This document shows, in pieces, positions 1 through 34,223 of a stretch of 64,000 bases of DNA. Location: the NCBI GenBank assembly GCA_973895155.1, contig OZ316892.1, positions 6,429,151 through 6,493,150 on the forward strand, given 5' to 3'. The stretch comes from Marsupella aquatica. Its lineage: Eukaryota; Plantae; Marchantiophyta. Within the stretch, counting starts at the first letter, position 1. Each line of letters starts with the position of its first letter. Position numbers and translations under genes: made by a program. The notes beneath the pieces were generated by a model, which made no database searches, had not been told where the DNA came from, and saw only the letters and a program-made list of their open reading frames with translations.

Positions 1-2278
1 GCCAAATTGTGCTCTGTTAACTCTGGAAACTTCAGACCACGCGTAGCAATATGTACAAGGTCCTCCTCAGGCAACCCAAGCAAATCAGCAACTCGATGAA
101 CTAACTCTTCCTTCCTCAGGTTAGAGTAGCCTCTAATACCCCGATCCTTCAACCAGTCTTTCAATTTTTTTATTTGTAACGGCTTGCAAATTAGAACGAG
201 ATGTCACAGTGTCTATGTCAATGGTAAGGGTAAATGTGACACTTGACAACTTGTCCACAAATTTCCTTACCAGATTTTTTGCCTTGTGCCATAAATCCTT
301 CTGGTTTGTAAATCCCATGTCCTTAATAATTCTATCAATGATACCTTTATCATCATGGATAACCTCTGTAATGACCACTCCTGCGTTCGTAAGAGTATCT
401 AGTACCCTTCTTGCTCCTATCTCCTCCATGTACCAAGAATTATTCTCTTCCCTTCTGCTCACAGTGGTCATCTCAAGAACCCTATTATCGTAACTATCAA
501 TGATAGAGGAAGTACCATGATACCCACTCCGAGAAGAATCCCAACGACAATCTAGATACACAACTAGTCCAGGATCTGCAAGAAAACCAAGAATATATTA
601 TGCGCGGAAAAAGTATTCTCAAAATTCATTCAATCATAGTATAATGCATACATGTCTTTCATGTTTGATCAAAACCTTTGTAACGACGATAAAAAATACA
701 ATTTTGCGGTACAAAACTTAAAAAACTGAACTAAATTATACATATATTAACTTAAATTAGTAGTTTAATTTGAAGACCTTCATGTACTGCACGTTGCTGC
801 TCAAGTCGGGTTTTTACATCCTCCCACACCTTGCTTTTGTTTACCTCCCATTGCTGCTTTACAGCATCTATCCATCCTACTTGAGGTCGTCGTCTTCCAC
901 TCTGAAAATCATGCCAATGGGTTGCAGAGGGAACATGCAAACCTAAATGCGATGTCAATGCGGCTAGAGCTGTAAATGTAAGACCAGCACATAGAGTGGA
1001 ATGATACAGCATAGGAGTAATCAATGGTGAATTCCTCCCAGACTCATTCTCACCAGTGACAAACGTCCACCCATGTCCATGTTGCCCACAACTGATCCTA
1101 ATAGACCAAACTTGTTGCAACTCACCAATACGCTCCACTGTAGGAGTCAATGCACATCCAGGTATATGACACGTAGGAAGTAGTCTCTGAACAAAAGTAT
1201 GAACTAGTTGTCGTTCAAAAAATGCTACTGTAGCCGGTCGACGAGGTGGAGACCTACGTGTAACGGGTGGATCAAAGGTAGGTGGTTCCGATTGCGAGTT
1301 TGGGACTAAGGATGGTTGTGAGGCAGATCGTTCCGGTGATTGGGAATCCAAGTTTACCACCTCCTAATTCAATACAAATATTTATATTATTAAAAGGAAT
1401 ACAAATAAAACACAAAGTGTCACAGGTGTAAAAATAGAGTGTGGTTGGAAAAACTTAATGGGTATGGATTGTAAATTGTTGCACCTCCTCCACAACCTCC
1501 TCGTGTATAGGAGCTCCTAAAGCATGAAGAACCGTTGTGTCTTCATCTCGAAACATGGCTTCATCCTCTGCATCTGATGGGTATTGCTCAACAATATGCT
1601 CCTGCAATTCCTCTTGCTCTTCCGTCAGTGCATCACTTGTTACAGACTGTTGACTCTGTAAAAAATAACCAAAGATGTAACAACATTATGGACTGGTTAT
1701 GGTTTTGGAAAATAGGACTTGCAAAAGTCCACATCAACAACCCTAAAGAAAAAATTATCCCAAAACAACACAAGCAAAACAAAGAAAAAATAATGTACCA
1801 CATAGAAATAAATTTCTTTTTACGTTGAATAAATACAGAAATAATGTAGAAGACATAACAGAATTATTTACAAACATACATCACGTAAATCCGTAAGCTG
1901 GCCCTGACTGCTGCTAGGATCCATAAAACTCGATGAAGCTCCAATGTCGGTCGCTGATGCAAGTTCATCTTGTAGCATTCTAGCAACTTGCGCTACTTGC
2001 CATCTCCTCAAATGCTCAACCCTATCTCGCACTTCATGAAACAACCACTCAATGACAGTTGAGTGTGTAGTATGTTCATCACCAAGTAAGACTCTCAATT
2101 CCTCCCAGTCATTCCACAAGTGAAGAGGGACTCGGATTGCAGGCCTTGCATCCGGTCTCCGAACCCTTTTATAGTGTATGTGATCACTAGGGTATTTTTT
2201 TCTCGGAGGGCCACCACCTTGAGGAGGGCGCTTTCGCTGGTGTGAGGGACGATGACGTGGATCATCCTCTGTACTCAT
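1..2278 (-). mobile_element. Mutator-like (MULE-type) DDE transposase gene, multi-exon, frameshifted, runs off the left edge of the window
   Basis: ORF 133-561 has LDCRWDS...G...SWYMEEIGA...IHDD...KDLWHKAKNL: two acidic catalytic positions plus a DxxH motif, as in Mutator-family transposases. Upstream exons are 752-1360 (C-x4-C...C-x2-H cluster) and 1868-2278, separated by AT-rich intron-like DNA. A frameshift at the T-run near 165-171 continues as LKDWLKDRGIRGYSNLRKEELVHRV. A homologous copy lies at 25.6-26.8 kb. Confidence 0.65.
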
Positions 2279-2919
2279 GGTGAAAAAATATAGTCTCTAC
2301 CGCATTTGACTCAAATCATCAGCTGGAAAAAAGTTGGATGTCAAACACTTAGAAGTACTAGCAAAATATCATTTAAAAACAGATAACAAACAACAATGAC
2401 CACATAGTGGTGCATTAATAATGTACAAGGTGGCTTTATGCCTCTTTATGCATGGTTCACCTCATGGCCAATGTACTCTTCTTTTCATTTTATGGGCTCC
2501 TCACAATTCTTTGTCTAAGCTCTCCTTTCATACACCGAGCACACATTCTTTGTAAACATACAGATTGTCAAAAGTAGTGGCTACTCCCTTCCTTCTAATG
2601 AACTAGTGTGCACATATTTTTTGGAAAAACACATATTGTAGAGAGCTTCCGCTACTCCCCTACCTCCTTCTTACGAGTACATATACAAGGACATATATAG
2701 TGAAACATGTACAGTAAAAAGCAAGTGACAAGCACAGACTCTTGCACCTCCGTTTGACTCCCGCGCCTCTGTTCGACTCTCACACCGTACCGCCTCTACT
2801 TCGCACCTCCTCACCTCGCCTCTCTTTCCTTCGGGGCTGCGACGACGAGCCCCTCCTCTACCTTGCCTTCATCTTCATGCACGCCACAATTTGCAAAAGC
2901 AACAGCGCTTGTTCTACGG

Positions 2920-3423
2920 TGCCGACAAAGTTTGATCCTAGGCCCTCCCGGCTGCGAGTGAGTGACATAACCAATAGAGCCGTCCAGGCTGTTCGATTGT
3001 TAGTAAACATGAAATAATATTTGAACAGGATCTAATTCATAAGTCCTTCATTAGGAGCGGGTAGCCTCGGCACTCCGCTCGCCATGTGTCCAGGTAATAT
3101 TCGTCGGCCCTAACTGCCCTCCCCTACCTCGTCACTCTTTCCTTCCAGGCGCTGCAACAATGCACCCCGCCCCCCATATTTAGAGTTCATCAAAAGGCCA
3201 AGCGTGACCTCCGGCGTCGACGAGGTTTGATCCCTGGACCTCCTGGGTGCAAGTGAGAGTGTGTTACCAGCAGAGCCGTCCAGGCTGTTCGAGTGTGAAT
3301 GCAAACAAAAGCGTATATGAACATAAGGGAGATCCTCAGTAGGCCTGCGTTGGCTTAGGATTGCCTCGGCCCTCTGTCCGCCATGTGTGGCTGCTATGGC
3401 TCATCATCCCCAACCTGCCCTCC
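2920..3423. repeat. Diverged direct repeat, two copies about 296 bp apart
   Basis: Blocks gtttgatcc...agagccgtccaggctgttcga...gcctcggc...cgccatgtgt...ctgccctcc occur at about 2920-3121 and about 3216-3423. Confidence 0.75.
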
Positions 3424-4309
3424 GTCGGGCTAATCTAAGAGCCCATCTTCTTTCCTGCCATGTGTAGGGTCAAAAGGGGAGAGGTTTGAACACACGACCT
3501 CCTCATTGGCAAGGAACAACACTACCAATGGAACAGCTCAACGTCATGCCTGAAGTGTCGGCACCAACTGGTAATAAACAAGTTTCAAAATGTAGTGACC
3601 CGGTAAGCCAGCCTGGCAGTCGCGACTGTCTAGCCGGGCTGCCCGAGGGCAATTCTGCCCGTGTGCCTTGCTTCTCCGTACATTACTCGCGTATCACTAC
3701 TTTGTTCTGTGTATAATGAGGGGCTACGGGTTACCCATAGCCTCTTATACTGGCAGCTGTGGTTTAACTGGCAAGTTCTCATCCCACCTTGTGTACACAC
3801 AAGTTTTCACAACTTGTTGTTTAGATTCAAGCGACAGGGGGCTTTATACACTTTCCGGTTTGCTTAGAGCCTTGTTTCGGGCCAAATCAGAGGCTCTTTA
3901 GAGGTTTTTGATAGTTCTAAGTTCATCTAAATACACAGATTGAACCAATTGTGCATGGTTTCTCATCTATAACATTGGGACATCATGAAGCCTATTATGA
4001 AGGCCTTTCATTGAATATTATGAATATTTGTTTGATCAATGTATGATCACTCTTGGTGTGGAGAGTTAGTGTTTGACTATTCTTGTTGATTGGATCCTCT
4101 CCACACTTGTTTCCTGTTTATGCGCCATGTTGGTTCGGTGTGGGCGCTTGATTCCATAGGAGTGATCCAGGTTTGCAACTGGACATTCTAGTGTGCTGTG
4201 TATTTCTCTCCTGGTGATGTTGGAGTGATGCCCAACACACCATGGTGAGTGCTTGTGGTGCTGACAGGGATAGATTGCCCTTAGGGTTAGCACATAGATT
4301 AGGTTAGGG

Positions 4310-6202
4310 TTGGTCACCACGGATTCTTCTGGTGCTGCTGGATTACCCGATGGACGACGGACCGGTTTCACTCGGAGTGGGGCACAGTTTCGGCCATCGG
4401 CATTGGTAGCAATCAGCAGTGTAGCTTCAGATAGTGATTCTGATGAGGACTCAGTGACCAATTCTCCTCATCATCAGGTGGTTGCACCTTTGTTGTGGGA
4501 TATGGACGAGATGTACGGGGCTACAAAGGGCCCACGACGATACTCTGGTGCAATTGGCACAATTGATCTGGATGACTTCATCCAGGAGTTTGATACGTGG
4601 TGCGATATGCAGACATTGCGTAACGTCACGTTGTTTACCCTTTTCATGGCATGGAAGGGATTATTCCAACATTTGGAGGGGCCACCCATGGATGACTACC
4701 ATGAATTTTGGAAGGCTCATTTGGTTGAGATTGAGGCATGGAGGCAGCATTGGTCGCCTAATTACGTGTCCATCACCTATGGCACTAGTGCGGCTGCCCA
4801 ACCCATTGCCATAGCTGTTGCTTCTTCTAGCAGCACTAGCCAGAGTGGCACACCATCCACCAGCAGCACTCCAGTAGCATCCACCGCTACTCCTGCCGGT
4901 GTGATTGTGACAAGAACTGGAGTTGCGCCAGTATTTAACCCTGTGGTGGAATTCTTTGAGGTACTGAAGCAGAACTATCAGGGTGTGAGAACTGATAAGT
5001 TGAAGGGTCTTCAGGAGTTCCAACGCAAGATTGGAGAGAGCCTACGTGAGGCATACACACGTATGCGCAGATTGATCACTGTCACCTAGGGAGTGACAGA
5101 GGCTCAGGCAGTCCAGTTTTGGTATGCAATTCTGGACAAAGAATTGCGACGTAGAGTAAGAGATGTCACTTTGCTTAGGGATGCAGATCCCACATTAGCA
5201 GTTGTTTTTACACTTTCTGAGCGCATTGAGCTCAATATGGTGAATGAGAAGGTGGTGACTTCCGGATTTGCCAAGGAAGCACCAAAGGCTGCATCCACAT
5301 CCACACTACAACCTACTGCACAAGAGTCTACCAGCCAGAGACATGTGCCCTCTTATGCTGGACAACAGTCAGGATGTTGGACCTGTGGTGGGGATCATGC
5401 ACAGAGAGATTGTCCAGATCATAGAGGATCAGGGGGAGCATCAGCGCCTGATCAACGACAGTGTGATCATTGTGGAGCTCCTGGACACACCAAGGATAGG
5501 TGTTTCTCACTCCATCCTGAGTTACGGAGAGGAGAATCCCGTACACATGATCAGGGAAGAGGAGGAGGAGGTAGAGGTGGTGGACGTGGTCGTGGCATGC
5601 CACATGCAGGGAGACAGGGAGGTGACGCTGCCCCTACTGTAACCATAGATCCAAAGGATGCTAAGATTGCTCAATTGGAGCAACAACTAGCTGCCATGGC
5701 TAGTTCCCAGGTGAGACCTACTTCTGGTGATGGGGCATCAACATCCTATGGACCTTCCACATCCCATGGTCCTTCCACATCTTATGGAGCTGATGGAGAC
5801 CTTGTCACCATGGGACTCATGTGTGGCACTGCACATATTGATGCATCAACAGCTTTGACACGTGGGGCAGCCAAAGCTCTTGAGCCCCGAGGAGCAGTAG
5901 TGGAGTTAGATCCACAAAGGGGGGATGCACGTCGGTAGACAAAGCTTCCTCAGTCTTTTACATTGTCAGAGATAGTTCAGACTGCCTCTATGAACCCGGT
6001 TCGGACAAACCCTGATGTGGGTAAGTTGGCAGAATCACGTAGTGATGTAGCAGGGATGACAGGTACCTTGCTGGGGGCGGCTACTGCCATGGTACGTGCC
6101 CCATTATTTTCAGTGATAGACATGCTGAACTTGGGAGTTGGTCCTGCAGAAGTGTTCAGATTGGCAGCTACACTCTGTGAGGACACTCCAGTGGTTGCTT
6201 CC
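4310..6202 (+). pseudogene. gag: Gypsy Gag with two zinc knuckles and an RGG tract; in-frame stops
   Basis: ORFs 4310-5089, 5093-5938 and 5963-6202 share one frame, broken by TAG at 5087 and 5936. Capsid-like FQRKIGESLREAYTRM, knuckles CWTCGGDHAQRDC and CDHCGAPGHTKDRC, and GRGGGGRGGGRGRG. Confidence 0.85.
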
Positions 6203-6530
6203 TGTTGAACTAAGACGTCATTCGCAACGACCATACAACCATGACTCATTCCATGCACACGTAACACAATCTCTACGTGGTTCACCTCCTCTCCAAGGCT
6301 ACGTCCACACGAACACTCAAGCTTTACTTCAAGAGTAGACGAACACACATGCTCTCCCCCTTTCTCAAGTTGCTCCGTTACAATGAGTAAGCACCACACA
6401 CCAGCGGCTTACACTAGCCCTGGTATATACAAGGTCACACACGACTAAACTAACCTCAACTAAGACCCTAACTGTGGTTAGCCTAAGTGCCATAACCTTT
6501 GAGTCACAAGACTAAGAGCAATCCTTAACA
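6203..6530 (-). repeat. 3' LTR of Copia-1 (328 bp)
   Basis: tgttgaactaag...atccttaaca. By eye it differs from 12759-13090 by about 3 substitutions and a 4-bp indel. Confidence 0.97.
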
Positions 6531-6543
6531 AACTCCCCCTTGA
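6531..6543 (-). other. Polypurine tract of Copia-1
   Basis: Minus strand reads TCAAGGGGGAGTT immediately before the 3' LTR. Confidence 0.85.
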
Positions 6544-6734
6544 CTCTAGTCTTGGGGACTGCAATTTCTGCTATCCATATGAGATCCTCAACGGGAAATT
6601 CTAGACAATCACCTAAAACCATAGGTGTCCCCCTAAAAACCATTTAAGGTTAACTAAGAGTTAACTAGAATTAAGCCGTAGCCATAACAGGATTGAGTAA
6701 CTCATATACAAAAATCACATCTTGTTAAGTTACT

Positions 6735-9700
6735 CTACTTGTGCTGCAAATGCAAAACCTGCAAAGTAGCACGGTGTCTTGAGTAACTCTCCAAAGGAAT
6801 CACTTTGGTAAAAGCATCAGCCGGGTTGAGTTTTCCATCAATCTTGACTAGCTCAAACATTTTATCAGACACTGCTTGCCTAATAAAATGGTACCTGATG
6901 TCAATGTGCTTCACCCTGCTATCCATCACTTGGTTAATAGCTAGGTGAAGCGCACTCTGGCTGTCACAATGAAGAGCCATTTTTCCATGCTCCAATCCCA
7001 TCTCAGTGACCAGCTTATCCAACCAAATTGCTTCCTTTGCTGCTTCTGCTGCTGCAACATATTCTGCTTCTGTAGTAGACTGAGATACACACTTTTGCAA
7101 GGTAGATCTCCAACTTATGCATCCTCCTCCAAGAGTAAACACATACCCAGTCGTTGACCTCCTTGTTTCCAGACAGCCTCCGTAGTCAGAATCTACATAG
7201 CCAACCAAAGATTTGGTTTTGTTTGATCTACTATCAAACAACAGACCATAGTCTATTGTGCCCTTAAGATACCTGAGAATCCATTTCACAGCCTCCCAAT
7301 GTACCTTCCCTGGATTTGACATGAATCTACTCACTTTGCCCATTGCTAGGGCTAGATCAGGCCTGGTACATGTCATCAAATACATTAGACTGCCCACTAC
7401 CTTCTCATAAGGAACCTTAGTCATCAAGCCTCTCTCCACTGGATCCGTGGGGCAGAAAGCCGATGATAACTTGAAATGTGGAGCCAAATGAATACTTACT
7501 GGCTTACAATTTTCCATGTTGAATCTTGCAAGTACCTTTTTAGCATACTTGCCTTGATTCAGCCACAATTGTCCAGTTTCAAAGTTCCTCGTAATCTCCA
7601 TACCTAAGATCCTCTTGGCTTTCCCAAGATCCTTCATTCGGAATTCAAAACTCAATTTTGCTTTGAGTTTGTCAACCTCAGTTTGATCCTTAGCCGCAAT
7701 CAACATGTCATCCACATAGAGCACTAGAATGAGCAAACCAAACACACTATTCTTGACTGATTTCGTATACACACAAGGGTCATACACCATCCTAGTGAAT
7801 CCTTGTGCAAGCATGAAATCATCAAACCGCTTGTTCCACTGTCGAGGAGCTTGCTTCAATCCATACAAGGACTTAAGTAACCTGCAAACTAAACTCTCTT
7901 GACCCTTCTTCACAAAGCCCAGTGGTTGCCTCATGAAAATTTGTTCCTCCAAGGTGTCATAGAGAAAAGCAGTAACAACATCCATTTGATCTAACACCAG
8001 ATCAAAAAACATAACAAGTTGACACAAAATTCTTATCGTGGAATACTTGGCAACTGGAGAGAAGACCTCATTGTAATCCACTCCCTTCTCCTGAGTGAAT
8101 CCTTTGGCAACAAGCCTTGCCTTGTATATCTTGTCTCCTCCATTTGAGAGTTGTCCTTCAGCTTGTAAATCCACTTGCTATCCACCACTTGTTGATCACT
8201 TGGCAGTTGCACCAGCTCCCATGTTTTGTTATCACATAAAGATTGCAACTCCCTCTGCATTGCTGCATTCCATTCATCTTTCTCGTCTGAAATGCTTGCC
8301 TCATGATATGAAGACGGTTCTCCTTCTTCCAAGATCAGTGCTCTGTCATCATCATCCGGTGCAATGTCAGCATCATCTAACCTTGATGAATCTGTCCATT
8401 GTCCATACCTTGTAGGAGCTCGAGTAGTTCACCTTGATTTTCTAGCTAATGATTCTGGTTGATCTTGTTCCGTTGGTTGATTTTGAGGTATTCCAACAAC
8501 AACCTGCTCTTCTTGTTCCATCATCGGAACCAGCTCCATTATCGGAGCACCTTCTTCAACTATGTCATAAAAACCCTCATGACCAATCTTCCCCTCAACA
8601 TGGTCCAGGATAGGAGATTTACCTTTGTCAGTACGGGAAGTCTGTGCATTCTCCCCCTCCTTTGATGATCTGGATTCATTAAAGGATACATCTCTACTGA
8701 CAAGCAATGTACAAGCTGCTGGATCCCATAGCCTGTAACCTTTCACACCTGGTTGATAACCAAGAAAAAGACACTTCTTGGAAGTAGAATCTAGTTTAGA
8801 TCGATTTTGCTTAGGTGTGAGAGCATATGCATCACTTCCAAAGACTCTCAAAACTTGATAGTCTGCGTGCCGTCCATACCTCATTTCAAACGGCATCTTG
8901 AAATTGATTGCACTTGAAGGAGAAAGATTTACCAAATAAGTTGCCGTATTTACAACTTCAGCCCAAAATTCATGCGGTAAACCTGATTGGCTCAACATAC
9001 TCCTCGATGGCTCCAATAGTGTTCGGTTTAGCCGCTCACAAACACCATTTTGTTGAGGAGTATAAACTGTTGTGAGATGACGAGTAATCCCTTGCTCTGC
9101 ACAGTACAGTTCAAATTCACTTGAACTGTACTCCCCGCCATTATCTGATCGTAGATATCTCACCTTGGATCCAGTTTGATTCTCAATTTGGGCTTTCCAC
9201 TTCTTAAAAGTGTCAAAAACTTCAGACTTTGCGTGTAGAAATGTGATCCACACATACCGTGAGTAATCATCAATAAACGTGACATAGTACAATTTTCCAA
9301 AAAATGAGGGAGTTGGGGCTGGACCCCACACATCACTATGTACATACTCAAGTATAGCTTTGGTATTGTGAGTTCCAACACCAAAGGTTCTCCTGTGCTG
9401 CTTCCCAAGCACACAGTGTTCACAAAAATCTAACTTAGTAGATTCTAAATTAGAAAGAAGTCCTTTCCTACGAAGTACCGCCAAACCTTTTTCACTCATG
9501 TGTCCCAATCTATAGTGCCACAACTGAGTCATCTCGCCTTGAGATCTAGTTACATTGGTTTCTTCACGAATCACGTTGCCCTCCAACAAGTATAGATTCC
9601 TGTGCCGCTTACCCTTCATGACAACCTTGCTTCCGGTTGACACTTGAAGAATACCATCAGCAGAATTCCACCAACATCCATTTGCTTCCAGCATTCCAAG

Positions 9701-9961
9701 AGAAATCAAGTTCTTTTTCATGTCAGGTATGTGTCTGACATTACTCACTGTTCGCACAGCTCCATCAAACATCCGAATTTTCACAGATCCAATTCCAACA
9801 ATTTGACAAGGATGATCATTCCCCATCAACACGGAACCGGTTGATATTGAGTAAGAACTAAAAAACTCTTTCATACAACAAATATGATAGGTACAGGCAC
9901 AATCTAGAATCCATTCATCACCGTTGTTACTGGATGAAATGCAAAGGGCAACATCTTGACT
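6735..9961 (-). pseudogene. pol: Copia-1 Pol (protease, integrase, RT, RNase H) with one nonsense mutation and one frameshift
   Basis: PR: WILDCACTYH. IN: WHYRLGH...CEHC, VHSDVWGP, LRSDNGGEY, QQNGVCER. RT: YKARLVAKGF, LYGLKQAPRQW, LYVDDML. RH: GYVDSDY, STTEAEY, KHIDIRYHF. In-frame TGA at 8429-8431 and a frameshift near 8145. Confidence 0.93.
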
Positions 9962-10888
9962 TCACAAGATTTCATCATCAAGCAAGTCAATCATATCAAT
10001 ATCAGTGGCTGCGTTCACTGATGGTTGATGAGTCTGCTTGACTCGACAGTCTCTTTTCATGTGGCCGGGCTTGTTACATTTCCAGCATATAATTGGTTTC
10101 CTTTCTAGAGATTTCTCTCTAGATCTGGATCTAGACTTAGACCGAGCCTTCTCCTTGCCTCTGTTCCGTGAGGGGTATGATTGTGAAAATGACATGTTTT
10201 CACTAGTCATCCGCTGTTGAGTCCTCTCGCGGTTCACATTCAACACACTGCTAGATGAAGATGGTGTCTGGGTATGACCCAATTTCTTCTGTGCATCATC
10301 TGACAGCAAAGAGCTTACCACCTCATCATATGAAATGGTTTTGAGGTCTCTATACAAGAGAACCTGCTTCAAACCTTGATACGATGGGGGTAAGGAGTTG
10401 AGAAGAAGCAATGCCTTATCTTCATCTTCCATTCCCTTGCCAAGATTTGACAAATCTACAGCTAGACTATCAAATTCATCCAAGTGATCTCGAAGCTTGC
10501 CTCCTTCTTTTAGCCTCAAGCTCATCAAGAGAGATTTCTTGTACAACCGATCTGAGGCATCCTCGCGGTAGTACATCTCTCTGAGGGCCTTGAATAAGGA
10601 TACGCAATCCTCGTAATCGTCTAGCTTCTTAATGATATGCGGCTTCAGATACAACATAACCGTATTCACAGCGATCACTTGCTCCTGCCTCCATTTCCTC
10701 AACGGGATCTCCTCCTCACTGCTAGACTCCTCCCGAGTCGAAAGCAGATGATCTAGGCCCATAGCACGAAGAATTTCCTTAACCTGTTTCTCCCATAGCA
10801 AATAATCCGTGCGCCCATCATACTTTTCCACCTCAAACTTGACACCTCCAAACTTGGATGCCATCGTTGTCCTCCCGACGTTCTCCAC
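9962..10888 (-). CDS. gag: Copia-1 Gag (probable ATG at 10864)
   Basis: KFEVEKYDGRTDYLLWEKQVK, LLLLNSLPPSY and zinc knuckle CWKCNKPGHMKRDC. Ends in a TGA that is in frame with pol. Confidence 0.9.
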   Translation of the reverse strand: MENVGRTTMASKFGGVKFEVEKYDGRTDYLLWEKQVKEILRAMGLDHLLSTREESSSEEEIPLRKWRQEQVIAVNTVMLYLKPHIIKKLDDYEDCVSLFKALREMYYREDASDRLYKKSLLMSLRLKEGGKLRDHLDEFDSLAVDLSNLGKGMEDEDKALLLLNSLPPSYQGLKQVLLYRDLKTISYDEVVSSLLSDDAQKKLGHTQTPSSSSSVLNVNRERTQQRMTSENMSFSQSYPSRNRGKEKARSKSRSRSREKSLERKPIICWKCNKPGHMKRDCRVKQTHQPSVNAATDIDMIDLLDDEIL

Positions 10889-11574
10889 ATGCTATTTCTC
10901 TGTTGCTCCCTATATCCTTTTGTCGCTTTTTCCTTCCTTCCGTCCCGTTGACTCAAATCCAAATCATGAAAAAATGTCATTTTTCACAACTTTCCAAAAA
11001 ACTTGAAACTTGTCACTGCCACGTAGCCCACCAGCCTAGCAAGCCAATGCTGAAATCCAAAATCGAAACCGAGTTCCAACGAAAAACTTTTTCACGTTTT
11101 GATCGGGGTGGGTAAAACTCAAAAAATTCTCCCCCGTTTTGACCACCTCGGGGAATAAAAAAAATTCCAAGTACCACCCGTCGTTGAAAATGAAAATCGA
11201 GTGGTGCACCGCGTTGCTAGCTTCAGTGGCTACGTCCTCGCCAAAAAAAATCCGAAAAAAGTTACCGTTCGGACCTTGGAATCTTCGACTAAAGGCCAAA
11301 AAACAGCTCTCTGTTTTTTTGGAATATTCCCCGGACTGTGCGGCAGGTCGCACAGGGGGCTGTTCCCCCTGTCTGAGCGGTTAAATTGTCGGGTCACCGG
11401 GCCCGGGATGCCGCTTAGCCAATGGGAGAAAGAGGAGAAAAAGGAAAAAATTGCCCTAAAAAGGGGTTGAATCCCTTTTCAAAAAATACAGTGTATTAAG
11501 GGCCAGGGATACGCTGGTACGCGGACGGGATACTACGCATATACATATGTGGGTGGGAGGTGGGGTACTCTGCC

Positions 11575-11880
11575 TTAATGGCTCATAGGGCAGCGTGCCC
11601 TCCTGGCCTGGCTCCCCCTCTTTAATTGCCTCACAAGGCCCTATGCAAGGGCACAAGGCCCTATGGTGGAGGGGAGGCGTGCAGAAAAGAGGAGAGGGGA
11701 GGGAGTTAATAAATAGGGCACAAGGCCCTATGTGGCTTTAATGAGGGGGGAAGGGGAGGGGAATGTCCAGGGCACAAGGCCCTATGTAGCTTTAATGAGG
11801 AGGTGGGAGGAGGGCTAGCGTAAGGGGGGAAGGGGGGTATGTCCAGGGCACAAGGCCCTATGTGACTTTTATGAAGGGGG
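11575..11880. repeat. G-rich array with five copies of (GGG)CACAAGGCCCTATG in the Copia-1 leader
   Basis: Motif at about 11632, 11649, 11716, 11770 and 11845, separated by GGGGGA/GGGAGG tracts. Confidence 0.8.
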
Positions 11881-12744
11881 GAAGGGGGGGGGAGGCACCG
11901 TATACACGTGCGAATACGGCGCTATACGCGCGCCGGGGGGGTTATCGTATGCCTGGGGGGGTGCACATGTATACACATAAGGGGTTAAAACCCCTTTAAA
12001 ACGCACAAATGTTGCCGCAAAAAAAATTGCCGTGTTACTTACTGAAAATGTCACCGTTTCACACGAGAAAAGTGCACTTCACCGACGGGAAATGTTTCCG
12101 AATTTCACCGGCGCCGTCTGCAACTCTAGCAGAGTAAAAACTTTGAGTCACGACTCCTTCACTCCGCATCAAGTGCCAATCTCGGACTCAAAATGACCAC
12201 CGCACCGCAATCTCTCCGTTGAGCCGTTGCACTTCCCGTTTCTCCCCCCAAGCCGAGTGTGACGTCGAGAAACCCGCTTCAGCCAAGGCTATGTCTCCAT
12301 AGCCATGGAAAATTTCAGAAATGTCACTTTCGCTCGTTGTGTCGCACTCGGTTCACCCTGGACAACAAACCAGATACCGAAACGACCAGCTTCCCCCGAT
12401 CTACGATTTGAGCTATAGTATGCAACGTCTCACGGACCACAAAGCTCACACCATAAAAAAAAACAATCTCAGGTCCCTCCTCCGTCGAAGAAACCGTCGA
12501 ATACGAATCTCTTTTCACAAAAAATTCCAGAACGACGAGAACTTTGATTCCTCCACTCCACAAAGTCCGATCAGTGATTTCTTCGTACCGTTAGATAGCC
12601 CTTGCCCCGATCTATCCGTTGAGCCCAACACCTCCAAGTTCCATGCGACGGAACTCCGTGAAATCCACCGACTCTAATCGCTGGAAAAACCGTCACCAAG
12701 ATGTCACGAAAATTTTGATCACCTCAACGTCACCTCCCAAGCTT

Positions 12745-12756
12745 GCTCTGATACCA
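12745..12756 (-). other. Primer-binding site (tRNA-iMet) of Copia-1
   Basis: Minus strand TGGTATCAGAGC, 2 nt inside the 5' LTR. Confidence 0.95.
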
Positions 12757-12758
12757 AT

Positions 12759-13090
12759 TGTTGAACTAAGACGTCATTCGCAACGACCATACAACCATGA
12801 CTCATTCCATGCACACGTAGTCGACACAATCTCTACGTGGTTCACCTCCTCTCCAAGGCTACTTCCACACGAACACTCAAGCTTTACTTCAAGAGTAGAC
12901 GAACACACATGCTCTCCCCCTTCCTCAAGTTGCTCCGTTACAATGAGTAAGCATCACACACCAGCGGCTTACACTAGCCCTGGTATATACAAGGTCACAC
13001 ACGACTAAACTAACCTCAACTAAGACCCTAACTGTGGTTAGCCTAAGTGCCATAACCTTTGAGTCACAAGACTAAGAGCAATCCTTAACA
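12759..13090 (-). repeat. 5' LTR of Copia-1 (332 bp)
   Basis: Near-identical to 6203-6530 and followed by the TSD CTTCC. Confidence 0.97.
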
Positions 13091-13095
13091 CTTCC

Positions 13096-13938
13096 CATGC
13101 AGAAGCAACTTGCAGTGTTGATGCAGTGAAGACCATGCCACCTACTGCTACTAGTGAGACATGGCATGCAGCAGCAGCGAGGTTGGTGGATTTACCAGCA
13201 CGCCCTGCATTTGAGAGGACTAGGTTTAAACCTAGTGTTGTATCATTGGATAATCGGAGTGGTATCTTCCGATTAGTTGGGCCTTCTGGAGCAGTATACC
13301 AGCCAGAGAGGGTGTTACTGGATACCGGTGCTCAGCACTTGATGTTGGGAAAGTCTGCCATACGTGGATTGGGATTGCGTCCAGAGGATTTGGAGGATTG
13401 TCCCTTTCCCATTCAGACTTCATTGGGGGGACCTACACCTACACAGCACATTACCAGGAGACCTCTTGATTTGAGGATTCAGGAAGGTCATACCACAGAT
13501 AGCTCACAGATACAGGCGCGAGCTATTCTAACTAAGGCAGAGTCATATGATGTGTTGGTGGGATGTACAGTGCTCTATCCCATGGGATTTATTCTTGATT
13601 TTTGGGAGGAATCAGTGTCATATAGACCTGATTGGCAGTCAGGAGATGCTCGATTGAGAAAATTGCCAGTGAGATTTAGTGGACCTATGGAAGGCCCTAA
13701 ATCCACACCATTGTCTTTGGCAGCATTCAGTGGTCTAATTGCTGGACCTGATGATTTGATTGAGGGTAATGCGCATGCAGCAGATGTTCCACCATTGGAG
13801 GAGTCTCATAAGGAGCACATCATGCAAGGATTACCTGTTGGCAGTGTTGTGCCACCAGTGTGGGGCATTGCACAGGCCTTGCTACAGACAGCAGCACGAT
13901 TGGTACATGATGCATGGCGTCATGCTTTTACACCATAG
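13096..13938 (+). pseudogene. Gypsy aspartic protease region
   Basis: VLLDTGAQHLML (D-T-G catalytic motif) and YDVLVGCTVL (retropepsin C-terminal motif). In frame with Gag once Copia-1 is removed. Confidence 0.85.
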
Positions 13939-14028
13939 TCAGGAGCAGAGCAACCTCTTGCAGATGGACCTGTGACCCTTTCACCATTGGATACCACTCT
14001 TATTGCTTGGCAGTATCCACCGGAGGGT

Positions 14029-14970
14029 ATTTGTTTGTTGGATCTTTTTGGTGGGATTAGCACTTGATTGGTTGCTGTTCTTCAGGCAGGAATTCCTGTG
14101 CGTCGTTATTTGTATGTGGAGTCAGATGAGACAACACGGAGGGTCTCATTGCGACATGTGGCTATGTTGGTGGATAGACATCCACAATTGCTGCCAGTGG
14201 ATGTTGTTCATGGTTATCAGCATGCACTACCTGCTGATATTTCATTGTTGGGGGCAGATCATCTGCATTGTGGCCCCATTGATTTGGTGATTGCTGGTTG
14301 GCCATGTCAGGGCCAATCTAGAGCTGGCATTGGGCATGGACTTCATGATCCACGCTCTGCATTGTTTTGGAAGATGTTATGGGTGTTGCGTCATCTCTAG
14401 CTACATCAGACACAGTCTCTAGCATACATTTTGGAGAATGTGCCATTGTTAGGTGATGATCGTAGTCGGATTGTTGCCAGTATTCACCAGGTGAGGTCTT
14501 GGATTGGACTTACTGTGTTATTGGATGCTGCACGTGTGGGTTCTCATGCACATCGTCCACGCTTGTGGTGGACTAATTTGATCCCATGTGAGGTGCTGAA
14601 GCGCGCATTTGACAGCATTCCACGCTCACCAGCCTTAGTGGTGGATGATATTTTGGATCCAGGGCGTCGTGCACAGGGTGTGACCCAACCTGATAGACCT
14701 CCATTGGCAATGGTCAATGCAGTTGGGCGCCCACGTTGTGCATTACCCACTCTTGTAAGCCACTCTGCTTCATATGTATTCAGAGCAGGTGGCCCTGGAC
14801 TTGTGTGGGACACAGCTCTCCAGCAGTTAGTGGAGCCTACTACTGATGAGAGAGAGCGTGCTATGGGATTTTTGACTGGCACCACTGCAGTTGCCTCTGT
14901 GTCAGAGGGTTTGTGGCGCCAGGTTCTTGGTCAAGCAATGGACTTGAATTGTTTGACTTGGATTATCAGC
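14029..14970 (+). pseudogene. DNMT3-like C5 cytosine DNA methyltransferase domain inside the Gypsy polyprotein (two in-frame stops)
   Basis: One frame gives motif I ICLLDLFGGIST*L, motif II RRYLYVESD, motif IV GPIDLVIAGWPCQ (catalytic Cys codon 14305-14307), DPRSALFW, motif VI ILENV, motif VIII DAARVGSHAHRPRLWWTNL, motif IX ERERAMGF and motif X RQVLGQAM. Stops are TGA 14065 (at a normally conserved Gly) and TAG 14398. Confidence 0.92.
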
Positions 14971-15167
14971 TTGGGAGTAGCTGAACAGTTGCGGATGCGC
15001 TCTGCTGGAATTATTGATTGTCCCTTGGTGAGCTTGCGGTCCACTGAGACAATATTGACCACAACTGGGGGCGAGCAAACGTCCATGGACCTATGGCAGG
15101 ATTGGCCAAGGCTGGACAAATTTTTGAGCAGGAAGGGACTGCTCAATCTACTGCTAAATAGCAATCA

Positions 15168-17099
15168 TTGGCTATCTTTTCTACCCTACAAAGAGATATT
15201 AGGGATTTGGTGGAGAGTTGGGAACCACAGCTTGGCCCTAAGTTAACAGGGGAGGAGAGACGTCGCATGCATCGATTTCTGAAGAGTTATTGGAATTGTT
15301 TTGCATTCAGCATGAAGGATTTGGGGACACTGAAGGGCCCTGATATTCAGATTGAATTGGCTAGTGATGCGCCAATCTTTCGTAGACCATACCGTTATAG
15401 TGACATGGAGAGAGCTCTGATTCAAAGTAGAACTCAAGATTTGTTGGAGGCTGGATTGGTGGAGATTTCATATGGGGAGTATGCATCTGCCTCAGTGATG
15501 CCAGCCAAGAAGGATGTGCATGGCAATTACATGGATAGGTGCATGTATGGTGATTACAGACCTATTAATCGCCAGACAAAATCTGATCGATATGCCATGC
15601 CCACACCTGAGGAGATCTTTGATGCTGTGGGGCATGCAAAGGTTTTCAATTCATTGGATCTGAGGGCAGGGTACCATCAGCTTCCAATTAGGCATGCTGA
15701 CAGGTTCAAGACAGCATTCTGGGGGATTGATTCTTATGGCAAAGATCGTTTGTATCAGTGGTTATTCTTACCATTTGGGTTGAAGAATGCACCAGCTGAG
15801 TTCCAGAGAGTCATGGATCAAATCCTTGCAGGTTTGGATTTTGTCAGATGTTATATTGATGATATTTTGGTCTATTCTTCTACTGTGGAAGAACATCAAC
15901 AGCACTTGCAGATTGTGTTGGAGAGATTGAGAGCACATGGGTTGAAGCTCCATCCTGGCAAGTGTAAGTTCTTCCAAGACCAGATTGAGTATTTGGGCCA
16001 CACTATATACCCAGGGGGATTGGGTGTACAGCAGACCAAAGTGGAGGCCATTACACAGATTTCTTGTCCTACTGATGTGAGTAGAGTTCGTGCATTCTTG
16101 GGATTGGCGAGCTACTACAGGAGGTATGTTAAAGGATTTAGCCAGCTTGCTAAACCTTTGACCATACTCACTAAGTTGGATCAGGAATGGATTTGGGATG
16201 ATGACCAGGAGCATGCCTTTGAGGAGTTGAAGCAAAGGTTGGCATCATCCCCTATTTTGAGAAGACCCATTTCAGGCAGACCATTTCAGCTATACACTGA
16301 TTGGAGTGGAGTAGGACTTGGAGCAGTGCTGACTCAGAAGGATGATGAGGGGAATGAGTTTGTTGTGGCTTATGCCAGTAGATCAAACAATTTAGCAGAG
16401 GCTAAGTATAGCTCTTATGAGGGAGAGTATTTGGCAGCAGTGAGGGCTGTTGCACACTTTTGTTGCTACTTGTTTGGTAACCCCTTCACCTTGATCACTG
16501 ATCATCAGCCTCTTAAGTGGTTAATGGAGTCTGACAAGCTTACAGGGAAGCTTGCACGATGGGCATTGTTGTTACAGGAGTATAATTTCCAAGTGGTGCA
16601 TAGGCCTGGAAAAGTGAACTTAGATGCAGATGGATTAAGCCGCAATCCATGTACCAGTCAGCAAGATGAGACTGGAGCTAGATGGCATGATGAGTCAAAT
16701 AAGGAGATGGTGCCAGGATGGCATGCATCTGCCTTTCTTTGTTGGGTGCCAGCATACAGTGGATCTGTGGACTCTACCTCATTGGATGGAGTGGATGATA
16801 AGTTTTCAGATGTGGATGTTGGTGAGGTAACTTCTGGACAGCAAGATATTCACAATGATGTGAGAGTGTTGGAATATCTGCGCAGTAGTTCTATTGTTGG
16901 CAGTGTTGATGCCAAGGAACGTGACAGGGTTCTACAGAGAGCCAAGAGGTTTCAATGGGAGGGAAACCATCTTTTGAGAGTACTGCATGATGGTAGGATG
17001 TTGGTGGTACCAAAACCATCACAACGAGTACATTTGGTGCGACATGCGCATGAGGAGTTGGGTCACTTTGGTGTGAAGCGCACTTATAGCTTGCTGTAG
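15168..17099 (+). CDS. pol: Gypsy reverse transcriptase, RNase H and start of the integrase zinc finger
   Basis: DYRPINRQT, SLDLRAGYHQ, LPFGLKNAPAEFQ, CYIDDILVYS, YLGH. RH: LYTDWS...YSSYEGEYLA...ITDHQPL...ADGLSR. HAHEELGHFG. An in-frame TAG at 17097 separates it from the integrase core. Confidence 0.95.
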   Translation: MAIFSTLQRDIRDLVESWEPQLGPKLTGEERRRMHRFLKSYWNCFAFSMKDLGTLKGPDIQIELASDAPIFRRPYRYSDMERALIQSRTQDLLEAGLVEISYGEYASASVMPAKKDVHGNYMDRCMYGDYRPINRQTKSDRYAMPTPEEIFDAVGHAKVFNSLDLRAGYHQLPIRHADRFKTAFWGIDSYGKDRLYQWLFLPFGLKNAPAEFQRVMDQILAGLDFVRCYIDDILVYSSTVEEHQQHLQIVLERLRAHGLKLHPGKCKFFQDQIEYLGHTIYPGGLGVQQTKVEAITQISCPTDVSRVRAFLGLASYYRRYVKGFSQLAKPLTILTKLDQEWIWDDDQEHAFEELKQRLASSPILRRPISGRPFQLYTDWSGVGLGAVLTQKDDEGNEFVVAYASRSNNLAEAKYSSYEGEYLAAVRAVAHFCCYLFGNPFTLITDHQPLKWLMESDKLTGKLARWALLLQEYNFQVVHRPGKVNLDADGLSRNPCTSQQDETGARWHDESNKEMVPGWHASAFLCWVPAYSGSVDSTSLDGVDDKFSDVDVGEVTSGQQDIHNDVRVLEYLRSSSIVGSVDAKERDRVLQRAKRFQWEGNHLLRVLHDGRMLVVPKPSQRVHLVRHAHEELGHFGVKRTYSLL

Positions 17100-17120
17100 A
17101 CACAATATTGGTGGCGTGGT

Positions 17121-18290
17121 ATGCACACTCATGTCCAGCAGTTGATAGCTAAGTGTGTGGTATGTGATAGAGTGAGAACATCATTTAATGCTCTCACTCC
17201 CCAATTACACCCGTTACCGATCATGGGTTTGGGATATCGTTGGAGTTTGGATTTTGCTGGTCCATTACCTCTTACCCAACGCCATAATCGGTATGTTTTG
17301 GTCATGGTGGAACACTTCTCCAAGTGGATTGAGCTAGTGGCGTTGCCAGATAAAGCCAGTGGAGGAGTTGCTGCTACATTTTTGGATCGTGTACTCAGTC
17401 ATTTTGGAGCACCAACTGAGGTGTTGACTGATCAGGGAACTGAGTTCCATGGAGAGTTTGAGAGTTTGTGTGAACAAGCTCTGATTGATCATCGTACTAC
17501 CTCTCGTGATCATCCTGAGGCAGATGGATTAGCTGAGAGAGTTGTGCAAACTATGAAGAGAGGATTGCGTAAGTATGGCTTGCAGGTTGGTCATCTGGGA
17601 GATTGGGATCTCCAGCTACCTTGGTTAGCTATGGGCTACCATTTCAGTCGGCAAGCATCACTTGCATCCTTCTCACCCTACTTTTTGCTCTATGGTAGAG
17701 AGCCAGATTTGCCAGTAGCTATTCGTCGTGATGCTGCACCAGTTGTGAACTTGGATGATCCTTATGTTTGCCTAGTCAAGGTGTGTTCAGAGAGAGCACG
17801 GGTATTTCAGAGAGTGATGCCCATGGCTTTTGACAACCTTGCCATTGCCCAACATTGTGATACTTTGAGGTATGCCACTATTCGTGGAGGAGGTTACCAT
17901 GCAAGCATTCGACAATTTCATCCTGATGATTATGTTTATTTGCAGCAGACAGCACCCATGACACTTGATGTGACCGCAGGCCGGACAATCTTACGTGTGC
18001 GTGAAGTGTTGCCTTCTGGTGTCCTGATGTTGGAGGGACGCGATGGTATGGTTTGGAAGGATCATGTGCGCAACTGTGCACCATGTCACCTTCCCAACAT
18101 TGATGGTACAATAGATCCAAGCTTGGCACATGTTCGTGCTGGCTTGAAATGTATGTTGTGTGGATCTGCTCAGGGAGCAACTACTATGTTGATTTGTGAT
18201 AAGTGTTCTAGAGGATGGCACATGTCATGTTTGACACCACCATTGCAGGTGATTCCTCGTGGATCATGGTTGTGTCCTCAGTGTCGGTGA
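17121..18290 (+). CDS. Gypsy integrase core with a C-terminal PHD finger
   Basis: CVVC, WSLDFAGP, LTDQGTEF and ADGLAERVV give the HHCC and DDE motifs. 18150-18284 encodes CMLC...MLICDKCSRGWHMSCLTPPL...GSWLCPQC, a complete C4HC3 PHD, followed directly by the stop. Confidence 0.93.
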   Translation: MHTHVQQLIAKCVVCDRVRTSFNALTPQLHPLPIMGLGYRWSLDFAGPLPLTQRHNRYVLVMVEHFSKWIELVALPDKASGGVAATFLDRVLSHFGAPTEVLTDQGTEFHGEFESLCEQALIDHRTTSRDHPEADGLAERVVQTMKRGLRKYGLQVGHLGDWDLQLPWLAMGYHFSRQASLASFSPYFLLYGREPDLPVAIRRDAAPVVNLDDPYVCLVKVCSERARVFQRVMPMAFDNLAIAQHCDTLRYATIRGGGYHASIRQFHPDDYVYLQQTAPMTLDVTAGRTILRVREVLPSGVLMLEGRDGMVWKDHVRNCAPCHLPNIDGTIDPSLAHVRAGLKCMLCGSAQGATTMLICDKCSRGWHMSCLTPPLQVIPRGSWLCPQCR

Positions 18291-18605
18291 AGCCGACTAG
18301 TTATCATTTGTGTTCTCTTGGCAGATATGGATTGCAGGTAGGTGATCGATGGGGCTCACTTGCACCCGACCTCCTGATCTTCACACCTAAAAAGGTGTAT
18401 ATCAACCTTGTAGAACTCATGGCTAGCTAGAGTTAGGGGACCTTACTCCCAGCTAGGGGGGCGATTGTGGGTTTTGGACATGTGTGGACATGAGTTCCAC
18501 TTGTATTCCATTCTCTTGTGTTTGTGATGTGACAGCGTGACTATGTTTGGATGTATGTGACAAGCGATGTATGTTGTGTAGCGATATGTATGCGCACGAC
18601 AGTGG

Positions 18606-19133
18606 AGAAATTGGACATCCTTTTTGCCCCCTCAAGCTTACAATTGACCGTTTGTATTCACAAACATGAGAGTGGAGAAAGGGCTTACAAAAGTAAGAAA
18701 TCTCCATACGTTTATATATAAATGTTATGAGGAAAGAAGAGCAACAAATGACGGTGTTAGGCCATTATCCACTGAGCAGATTGACATTGAAGGGTATGAT
18801 GCAACATGTATCGCCCTTAGACAAGAAGATGTCAAAGATTTTGATGCAATTGATGATGCGGATGAAGCCTTGGAAGGATTATCATTACATAAAGAGGGTG
18901 ATTTCTTGACTCGTCTTCCACCAGATACAGATGTAAGTGATGCAGGTGATTGGGAGAATGAAATAGATTTCGAGATGTATCCTACAATTGACGAGTCGCA
19001 AATCAAAGATGAAGATCATACATCATTGTATTCAGATTTTGCAACGCCTTCCCAACCAAAGGCATCTTGGGCTTATCCATCATTGAACGTTCATAATGAT
19101 GTCGACCCAAGCAGATCATACTTTGTTCAATAA
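18606..19133 (+). mobile_element. hAT transposase C-terminal (dimerisation domain) remnant with acidic tail
   Basis: In frame with ORF 18666: RNWTSF...*PFVFTNMR, resembling the hAT ERNWSxF...LVFVxxNxR motif, followed by a D/E-rich tail. It is internally deleted. Confidence 0.5.
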
Positions 19134-25639: not shown

Positions 25640-26790
25640 CTCCAAATCTTTCTAGTATGTAGACGGCATAAATATCCTCCCCGTAATGGTGGTCCTCCGA
25701 GACCAAAGTACCCAAGTGATGACATGGAGTACAGGAGGAGGATGAGACTAGATGCCAAGCCACCGATCCCACCGGAGCGATGGGATGAGTGAGAGGAGCT
25801 TAGATATTTATTGGAGGATGACACGAATACCACTCACGCTACTGTCATTCATTGGTTGCTTGACAAGTGCAATTATCTAAGAGATGAGTTGAAGAGACAA
25901 CGAGTGGCAGAGACAACAATTTTTGCGAGTGAAGCATTCCCAGATGAGGCCGAGAGGGAAATGACGCCTACTGCACCTGACACAGATCTATTTGACCTCA
26001 ATTCTTTCTCAGCCAACGAGTCTTTCCATGTAGGAGGTTCAATGTACTTTGTTTTTCTTTTCCATTGTACAACTTATTGCTTTTCTCTAATGTCTCCACT
26101 TCATTCTCAGTACAAAGTACCGACTTTTCCAAGTCAAACTATTGCTTTGGACCTCTAGGAGTTTTGGGATGAACAAAACCCCTCATGCTGTAAATCTTGA
26201 CCGTCAACTTTTGCATCCAATCTATAGGGATGGAGCACATTGAGGGAGTTGTTGGGGCTTATAATGAATGGCCTGAGGACATTATCCACGGGACTTTTGG
26301 TGAGAATGACATCACCTTTGGAGACAATAATCCAAATGTGGTGGCTGCTCTAGGGAGACCAGTATGCAATATTATTTAGTTACCTTACAACTTTTATCTT
26401 GTTAATTTTATTTCAGGATAAGTTTTGTTTGATACTTTGTGATGTGTTATACATTGGACATATAGCAAACTCAGAAGACTGGCATGGAGGATTTGGAGTC
26501 TCTTCCCTCGGCGGTAATGGATTCTCAAGTGAATCCTACTCGTATGATGGATCCTCAATTTTCTCATGTTGGGGTCATAAATTCCCAAATCCCTCCTTCT
26601 GCAGTGATGGACTCTCAGATTCCTCTTATTCAGGTGGAAGAATGTCAGGCTCATGTGGGGGTTCCAAATACAAGATTTTGACCTTACAAGCCTGCCACAG
26701 TTGTTAAGGCATTTGCTGCACACCTTTGTGGAGCAATTGATGTCACATATTCGACTGTCTTTTGACCCCTACAGTACACCATGTTAGAGC
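25640..26790 (+). mobile_element. Second, degenerate 5' portion of the Mutator-like transposase gene
   Basis: PPRNGGPPRPKYPSDDMEYRR...WDE*EELRYLLEDDTNTTHATVIHWL aligns with ORF 1868-2278 (PPQGGGPPRKKYPSDHIHYKR...WNDWEELRVLLGDEHTTHSTVIEWL). Near 26715, LLHTFVEQL...TPTV aligns with LVHTFVQRL...LTPTV of ORF 752-1360. Confidence 0.7.
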
Positions 26791-33878: not shown

Positions 33879-34223
33879 TGTTGACCATAGACGACGATCG
33901 CAACGGCAAGCCCATGAACCATCCAACGCACAATAGTTGACACAGAGAGATACATGGTTCACCTCCACATGAGGCTATGTCCACGGGAACACACAAGAGC
34001 TTTATTGCACTCTAGACCGACCGGCCATACCAAGCATCCACAGCACAAGCTCTCCCTATCTCTCAACTGGCTCCATAACAATGAGCCTGAGTTCCACCTC
34101 TCCAAGCAAACACTGCTTGGTTATGGAGTGTGCACAGTATGACTAACCTAACCAAGTCTGCAACTAAGGTTAGTCTTAACTACGGTACATTCGTAACTCT
34201 AGACCTAAGAGTAAATCCTAACA
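33879..34223 (-). repeat. 5' LTR of Copia-2 (345 bp)
   Basis: tgttgaccatag...gtaaatcctaaca, adjacent to the PBS. Shares short motifs with the Copia-1 LTR. Confidence 0.9.

Follow-up and report, generated by a model that had tools for sequence, protein, structure and literature searches.

The stretch of DNA analysed here (the window) comprises 64,000 nt of the liverwort Marsupella aquatica (contig OZ316892.1, positions 6,429,151–6,493,150, forward strand). It contains a copy of a Ty3/Gypsy retrotransposon with the order Gag, protease (PR), reverse transcriptase (RT), RNase H (RH) and integrase (IN), in which a DNMT3-like cytosine methyltransferase (MTase) is inserted between PR and RT and a PHD finger follows IN (Table 1). 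Contig depth and loose contig ends place this copy at ~3763–18601, and the extent of 4310–18290 given in a preliminary description of the locus was too short. The copy is dead: six premature stops, two of them within the MTase, and a one-base indel leave it unable to make the enzyme. Many copies of its family are present in the runs of the host, with 3366–18071 contigs per run on 12900–18900 that are gapless across MTase and RT in four runs; the contig runs serve for presence only, and summed depth gives no copy number.

The element is interrupted by a nested Ty1/Copia on the opposite strand. Its long terminal repeats (LTRs) are identical at 325 of 328 aligned bases, with one 4-bp gap, and it is flanked by a 5-bp target-site duplication (TSD; CTTCC at 6198–6202 and 13091–13095). 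This Copia is young, and it is a later insertion because contigs of other Gypsy copies cross the empty site, passing from 6202 directly into sequence matching 13096 onward. Since 4298–6202 consists of whole codons and 13096 begins a codon in the PR/MTase frame, Gag, PR and MTase share one open reading frame (ORF1) once the Copia is removed. The preliminary description had claimed both the Copia and the common frame, and both are borne out. It had also placed RT–RH–IN–PHD behind the MTase. Pfam finds these domains in that order, together with an H2C2 domain, but RT is out of the MTase frame in the window copy through the indel near 15080. At this position most of the depth in all four runs disagrees with the window, and P0004, a relative with 82% identity, carries on in the other frame. 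Since the relatives stay in frame and other copies read differently at this point, we rejected a programmed frameshift near 15080.

The region 4298–6202 is named Gag because of its position, its two CCHC knuckles and its 39–52% identity to the N-termini of Marchantia polyproteins; Pfam gave no match for it. PR reaches E 5e-4 against PF13650, under the cut-off, and is 41–52% identical to relatives. PF00145, RVT_1, rve and PHD, the profiles that the preliminary description had proposed for a search, all matched. The nearest PDB entries to the PHD finger are those of CHD4, ATXR5, KDM5-PHD1 and PHF21A, fingers that read unmodified H3 tails.

Table 1. Positions of the main features in the window
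Feature	Positions	Strand	Basis and remarks
Candidate left 4-bp TSD, GTGG (uncertain)	3759–3762	+	pairs with 18602–18605
5′ non-coding part; would include the A repeat/LTR	3763–4297	+	multi-copy depth
Gag region of ORF1	4298–6202	+	translation; first in-frame ATG 4502; two CCHC knuckles; premature stops 5087, 5936
Nested Ty1/Copia, secondary insertion	6203–13090	-	LTRs 6203–6530 and 12759–13090; tRNA-Met-type primer-binding site; six-frame translation, repeat searches
Aspartic protease (LLDTGA, ~13303–13452) and linker, ORF1 continued	13096–13935	+	premature stop 13936
DNMT3-like C5-cytosine methyltransferase, unpermuted	14029–14976	+	PF00145; premature stops 14065, 14398
One-base indel peculiar to the window copy	15075–15085	+	puts the ORF1 tail out of frame
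Family-conserved ORF1 stop, TAG-CAA-TCA (UAG-CAR-YYA)	15159–15167	+	TAG at 15159–15161; in frame with RT
ORF2: RVT_1 15543–16007, RNase H 16194–16583, integrase 17016–17516, PHD finger 18150–18284	15162–18287	+	Pfam, for PHD also PDB matches; premature stop 17097, end stop 18288
Polypurine tract AGCTAGGGGGGC	18451–18465	+	in relatives kept just ahead of repeat B
Terminal repeat B, 136 bp, right element end	18466–18601	+	ends CACGACA; single in the window
Saccharopine dehydrogenase-like host gene	38603–40783		
ARM-repeat protein host gene	52060–54414		

The methyltransferase and its family

Translated with X at its stops, the MTase matches PF00145 with E 4e-10 and 40.1 bits (cut-off 22). Its motifs stand in canonical order: I (14035), IV GWPCQG (14296), VI ENV (14434), VIII HRPRLWW (14551), ERERAMG (14848) and LGQAMD (14926). 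This agrees with the earlier claim of a full domain with PCQ and ENV present. The strings quoted with that claim (LSLFDGIATG and so on) belong to DNMT3A and not to the window, which reads LLDLFGGIST, GPIDLVIAGWPC, ENV, SHAHRPRLWWTNL, ERAMGF and QVLGQAM. The kinship with DNMT3 and the lack of the DRM permutation, also claimed before, hold up. DNMT3A/B/C are the best matches in a PDB sequence search, and a profile of 21 sequences ranks DNMT3A (2e-25) before DRM (5e-16), M.HhaI (6e-9) and DNMT2 (2e-6). A structure predicted from a 100-sequence alignment (pLDDT 94.7, pTM 0.93) finds only DNMT3 entries among the Foldseek matches listed, with DNMT3A best (E 2e-18, TM 0.64/0.80). Similarity ranking and predicted fold together support a DNMT3-like domain. 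In both the 21- and the 100-sequence alignment, the catalytic Cys, the Glu of ENV and the Arg residues of RxR show little or no variation, and an ESM Atlas look-up of the MTase gave nothing beyond PF00145. A phage origin is unsupported: viral contigs hold ordinary phage C5-MTases only, 28–43% identical over part of the domain.

The domain is a regular part of the family. A search with the MTase matched at least 54 longer proteins, at least 16 of them from Marchantia polymorpha, and one each from Calypogeia fissa and Sphagnum fallax among those listed; 224 representatives match at E ≤ 1e-30. Nearly all close matches are Gag–PR–MTase proteins of ~1250–1450 aa that end ~80–170 residues past the MTase. 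Five Marchantia ORF1s of 1278–1281 aa are mutually 95–96% identical, with motifs I, IV, VI and VIII intact. Deeper relatives are named from Klebsormidium, Closterium, Coleochaete, Tetraselmis and Scenedesmus, and the MTase has the same position in elements of liverworts, a moss, Closterium and Klebsormidium. The named matches listed include no close vascular-plant relative, which is weak evidence of absence. A scan of JGI metagenome contigs added 80 loci (L001–L080, many of them redundant copies), 65–69% identical to the fragmentary S. fallax model.

Trees of the two enzymes agree. In a quick MTase tree (57 rows, phage C5-MTases as outgroup), the window falls together with Calypogeia, Marchantia and related contigs (support 99), and the MTases of window-type and Klebsormidium nitens elements group together against those of phages. 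In a quick RT–RH tree (65 rows, hand-picked from the matches, with an outgroup that is not one side of a branch and no approximately unbiased (AU) test), the window joins Marchantia with support 99, and a clade of 53 rows, also with support 99, contains all MTase-bearing elements including those of K. nitens. Both trees group the same bryophyte-type rows.

Ratios of nonsynonymous to synonymous change (Ka/Ks) point the same way. For the MTase they are 0.124 for L024/L026 (Ks 0.26), 0.121 for L024/L036 and 0.102 for L026/L036. Seven of eight between-subfamily or open-element pairs lie at 0.10–0.19 and the eighth at 0.24, with one further pair saturated. Window against other loci gives 0.15–0.24 at Ks near saturation (0.15–0.17 against L016 and L003), and RT gives 0.05–0.12. 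Five pairs of decayed sisters have an MTase Ka/Ks of 0.43–0.75. These data support an MTase that is part of the element family and is maintained by purifying selection. On the points at which the preliminary description could have failed, we found a PF00145 match, relatives in several species that carry the domain, Ka/Ks mostly below 0.2, and a land-plant host.

Some relatives show other arrangements. A sister clade has the order RT–RH–MTase–IN–PHD (P0064, P0094 from Scenedesmus, L060:1877–2818 and ~50 other proteins), and since it bears the MTase between RH and IN, the domain has shifted position within one RT clade. In Tetraselmis the MTase lies before RT. The K. nitens protein GAQ93235.1 is Gag–PR–MTase with RT–RH–IN as the neighbouring gene, and KFL_009030040 is PR–MTase–RT–RH–IN. 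A Coleochaete scutata transcript (P0352) encodes an RT–RH–IN–PHD ORF of the same clade, and the lineage is therefore transcribed in a charophyte. One ORF2 protein of the family (P0526), deposited under 'uncultured Synechococcales cyanobacterium', is probably a binning contaminant. Nearby Gypsy relatives P0443, P0445 and P0446 combine PF05869 (adenine methylase) with PHD and resemble the DAM-LTRs of a 2026 preprint (bioRxiv 10.64898/2026.05.21.726589; this and the other papers cited are represented by the available parts of their text).

The stop after the methyltransferase and the split repeats

Two features were missed by the preliminary description: a conserved stop in readthrough context at the end of ORF1, and split terminal repeats. 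UAG followed by CAR-YYA is the readthrough signal of tobacco mosaic virus (TMV), with an efficiency of ~10%, and candidate CAR-YYA cases in rice gypsy elements are mentioned in the same paper (PMC2754532). Both the end of the MTase and the start of RT are contained in 53 of the 80 loci. At the homologous site, 61–72 codons ahead of the RT anchor, 40 of these 53 junctions have TAG or TAA in frame, with CAR-YYN directly behind it. The 40 form eight sequence groups, six of which include the exact CAR-YYA (8 of the 53 junctions); these groups and the window use differing codons (CAA/CAG, TCA/TTA/CCA) without an adjacent ATG. By comparison, CAR-YY follows only 14 of 841 decay stops. The locus L024:976–8226 consists of exactly two open ORFs, 1369 aa and 1047 aa, with TAG-CAG-TTA between them. 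To judge from this conserved context and from TMV, the stop after the MTase is likely leaky and read through into RT–RH–IN–PHD, from which it would follow that the MTase is made at Gag levels. Some algal-type relatives (P0066, P0364, P0420) keep MTase and RT in one ORF.

At the left end of the window copy, contig depth climbs ~30-fold from bins 3506–3639 to 3774–3907. The bases that follow the candidate GTGG are TT and not TG, and we estimate the chance of a 4-bp match in the span at about 1 in 10. At the right end, position 18601 has a depth peak and 29–45 loose contig ends, and the window's B is ~67–74% identical to the B of related loci. Self-BLAST and local alignment found no LTR pair in the window copy, and the best scores for a 5′ LTR or a copy of B upstream stayed within the range of shuffled sequence.

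Relatives reveal the full plan. The order A–coding–B–A–B is complete in L043, L054 and L073/74, and B–A or B…B occurs in L014, L020, L024, L036, L064/65, L068, L075 and L080. TG…CA ends with a 4-bp TSD are found in L043 (AAGG), L054 (CATA), L018 (TACA) and L029 (CACA), and the right end of the window copy is CA. L018 and L029 are A–coding–B with the TSD kept, which is the expected product of recombination between B repeats; the window copy likewise has a single B, and probably lost its 3′ A–B through recombination between two B repeats. By eye, no TGG-type primer-binding site directly follows the first A (A1) in L043 or L054. Because the polypurine tract precedes B and not A, and no tRNA primer-binding site is apparent after A1, the structure suggests a replication route unlike that of standard LTR elements. 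The junction of the first B with the second A is a near-palindrome, GACA-nn-TGTC, resembling joined integrase attachment sites (L043:10325–10375, L014:14679, L024:8654, L036:8233, L080:4893).

The host is a leafy liverwort and hence a land plant. For an exon of the flanking saccharopine dehydrogenase-like gene, identity reaches 91% with Calypogeia fissa, 74% with Marchantia and 62% with Physcomitrium, against mostly 50–60% with seed plants and ferns. These identities reject a charophyte host and uphold the land-plant host that had been proposed. Two further host genes are, by their motifs, presumably an alpha/beta hydrolase (46945–49357) and an anthranilate phosphoribosyltransferase (61698–64000). 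The nested Copia carries a G-rich repeat of 54–76 bp at 11693–11891 within its long leader, and an older, decayed Copia that is 71–81% identical to it lies at 30327–34476. DUF4218/DUF4216 fragments, which we take to be typical of CACTA-type transposons, lie at 27864–29137. Open frames without a Pfam match at 136–2296 (minus strand) and 25687–25870 are partly repeated in inverted orientation and are possibly a decayed DNA transposon. Tandem repeats have units of ~67 bp at 41017–41277 and ~78 bp at 45107–45492.

A proposed packaged methyltransferase and its alternatives

On the reading we favour, and consider fairly probable, the Gypsy copy in the window is a dead member of the KnitGypsy-Dnmt3 lineage, described in K. 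nitens (de Mendoza et al. 2018, PMC5890265), in which a probably leaky stop follows Gag–PR–MTase and the MTase would be packed at Gag levels and likely methylate new cDNA. At the stop behind the MTase most ribosomes would terminate, and a smaller share (~10% for TMV) would read through to the full polyprotein. Gag–PR–MTase would be the main product, from which PR would free the MTase inside the particle. The enzyme would then methylate double-stranded cDNA before integration, probably at CG, by analogy with the Dnmt3-type retrotransposon enzymes that have been tested, and the PHD finger would tether IN to unmodified H3 tails. A new insertion would arrive pre-methylated and host maintenance methylation would take over, which could amount to camouflage or to self-limiting silencing. 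The window copy acquired its six stops, the indel and the Copia afterwards. Enzyme activity, readthrough and cDNA methylation are what we infer.

Several observations weigh against this reading. In yeast, no methylation by the K. nitens enzyme was seen, an outcome that its authors describe as inconclusive (PMC5890265). CpG values are 0.29–0.39 in the window copy and 0.27–0.28 in L003, but L024 and L036, whose ORFs are open, reach 0.52–0.75, and the Copia, which has no MTase, is likewise depleted (0.42); CpG depletion was rejected as a signature of self-methylation because it does not discriminate. At the stop, 32 of the 40 motif-bearing junctions carry CAA-CCC/CCT and not CAR-YYA, mostly with an ATG right behind, which would also suit reinitiation; the largest junction group, of 30 loci with many redundant copies (plus L038/39), is of this type. 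The motif is missing from another 12 of the 53, of which three have a sense codon there (L027, L042, L052) and the rest are decayed or shifted, and one more junction is deleted. RNA folding 3′ of the stop gave no consistent structure (z −1.2 to −4.1). For a few rows of the RT clade the predicted protein contains no MTase, so the domain may be dispensable, and because the loci were chosen by their MTase, MTase-free sisters would be missed.

The junctions bear directly on one alternative, which accepts the architecture and the MTase but has ORF2 made through reinitiation, or from an RNA that is spliced, and treats the CAR-YY context as coincidence. The prevalence of CAA-CCC/CCT with its following ATG suits it, as do the sense codons in three loci, but the exact CAR-YYA recurs with varied codons and no adjacent ATG in six divergent groups and in the window, undamaged copies have ORF2 in frame, and an independent ORF2 would bring neither a PR nor a Gag of its own for particle entry. 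We regard this alternative as very unlikely. Another possibility is that the MTase, made in excess with Gag, methylates host chromatin at the insertion site or at genomic copies in trans, with the PHD finger acting in the manner of the ADD domain of DNMT3A. The stop does predict an abundant ORF1 product, and the resemblance of the finger to those of CHD4, ATXR5, KDM5-PHD1 and PHF21A is in its favour. Yet the PHD finger sits on the IN side of the stop and would be cleaved away from the MTase, and a Gag-fused enzyme ends up in the particle alongside the cDNA, a placement that is established retroelement biology. Action on host chromatin seems to us unlikely.

It is also conceivable that what preserves the domain is a non-catalytic function, for instance in binding the genomic RNA or the cDNA as the split repeats are replicated, or a function directed at RNA, such as its methylation. 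The inactivity of the K. nitens enzyme on yeast DNA (PMC5890265), a Gag-level stoichiometry that would fit a structural role, and the inconsistent CpG depletion of intact elements all lean this way. Against it stand the near-invariance of the catalytic Cys, the Glu in ENV and the Arg residues in RxR, and a predicted fold that is that of DNMT3 and not of DNMT2, and we rate such a role as quite unlikely. A chance event, in which one decayed element picked up part of a host DNMT3 and made no use of it, would account for the two stops in the window MTase and for the Ka/Ks of decayed sisters (0.43–0.75), but it is refuted by the conserved place of the MTase in elements from liverworts, a moss, Closterium and Klebsormidium. 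The Ka/Ks of ~0.12 between open elements, and MTase and RT trees that group the same bryophyte-type rows, add to making it extremely improbable.

Taken one step further, the favoured reading of a packaged MTase would make these elements an ancient green-lineage clade in which a DNMT3-type enzyme at capsid stoichiometry, a TMV-like leaky stop and split-repeat replication deliver pre-methylated cDNA to PHD-selected chromatin. We offer this joint picture, including a lineage that is still young in Marchantia, tentatively and with less than even confidence. If true, transposons of land plants would themselves lay down the marks that silence them and would nucleate heterochromatin in the host, and dozens of de novo methyltransferase genes would have been overlooked in bryophyte genomes. 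The count of five DNA methyltransferases for Marchantia (PMC5784723) omits a transposon-encoded set that could switch on when silencing is lost. A stop after the MTase predicts enzyme at Gag levels, roughly 10 times those of RT and IN if TMV-like. The role of retrotransposon-borne DNMTs has been open since 2018, partly since Symbiodinium and Klebsormidium are hard to manipulate. It is directly testable in Marchantia polymorpha, because the open, near-identical ORF1s occur there in a genetic model with methylation mutants.

Relation to known systems

The available literature describes Gypsy-Dnmt3 elements only in K. nitens, and methylation of cDNA or target site has already been proposed for them (de Mendoza et al. 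2018, PMC5890265). A recent preprint sets Gypsy-DNMT3 elements of 'streptophytes' apart, with no occurrence of land plant, Marchantia or bryophyte in its available text (bioRxiv 10.64898/2026.05.21.726589); Sarre 2025 refers back to streptophytes and, as far as available, names no land-plant elements. The available text of the REXdb paper has no occurrence of PHD, methyltransferase or Marchantia, and no such element appears in the available parts of Schmid 2018, Yaari 2019, the Mpmet preprint, the Apopellia genome paper or a TE review. The literature covered, from which subscription papers are mostly excluded, gave no land-plant report, no naming of the Marchantia genes (prior mention is possible) and, besides the rice candidates mentioned above, no pairing of CARYYA with retrotransposons.

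Among other retroelements with cytosine MTases, SymbioDIRS-Dnmt3 and SymbioLINE-Dnmt of the dinoflagellate Symbiodinium differ in being DIRS elements with a tyrosine recombinase, or LINEs, and not Gypsy elements with a DDE integrase; in yeast, Dnmt3 domains of the SymbioDIRS type act as de novo CG methyltransferases, the closest functional precedent (PMC5890265). EpiLTRs and DAM-LTRs likewise combine LTR elements with methyltransferase and chromatin-reader domains, but own DAM and a DNMT4-sister DNMT with a chromodomain (bioRxiv 10.64898/2026.05.21.726589). Host DNMT3 proteins (animal DNMT3A/B; moss PpDNMT3, PMC6453930) share the canonical motif order and, as DNMT3A/B/C, the best sequence, profile and fold matches, whereas the window MTase is ~21% identical to DNMT3A, lacks PWWP/ADD and the DUF3444 C-terminus, and lies intronless in a polyprotein. 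Plant DRM is permuted and scores lower (E 5e-16 to 7e-13). The UAG-CAR-YYA of TMV (PMC2754532) is similar as an in-frame stop with CAR-YYA between structural and polymerase ORFs. In contrast to the gag–pol readthrough of retroelements, the stop of the window element, a predicted readthrough site, comes after PR and MTase and not after Gag.

The closest system is KnitGypsy-Dnmt3 (PMC5890265), a Ty3/Gypsy element whose Dnmt3-like domain has no introns, is unpermuted and evolves under purifying selection (Ka/Ks < 0.2). A figure legend of that paper gives it DIRS-like repeats with Gypsy domains, which equals the A–coding–B–A–B of our relatives, and K. nitens proteins share the PR–MTase–RT–RH–IN order and the RT clade of the window. 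The differences are a land-plant host, identities to K. nitens proteins of 35% for the MTase and 46–51% for RT–RH, a PHD finger ('PHD' does not occur in the available main text of PMC5890265), and the side of the stop: the paper puts the MTase in the Pol ORF, whereas the window-type MTase ends the Gag–PR ORF before the CAR-YY stop. GAQ93235.1 of K. nitens, known from the protein only, also ends after the MTase. Because the domain order is the same and relatives have A–coding–B–A–B, we identify the window element as the KnitGypsy-Dnmt3 lineage in land plants, to which it belongs by descent, repeats and selection, and from whose described members it differs in its host and its Gag-side MTase.

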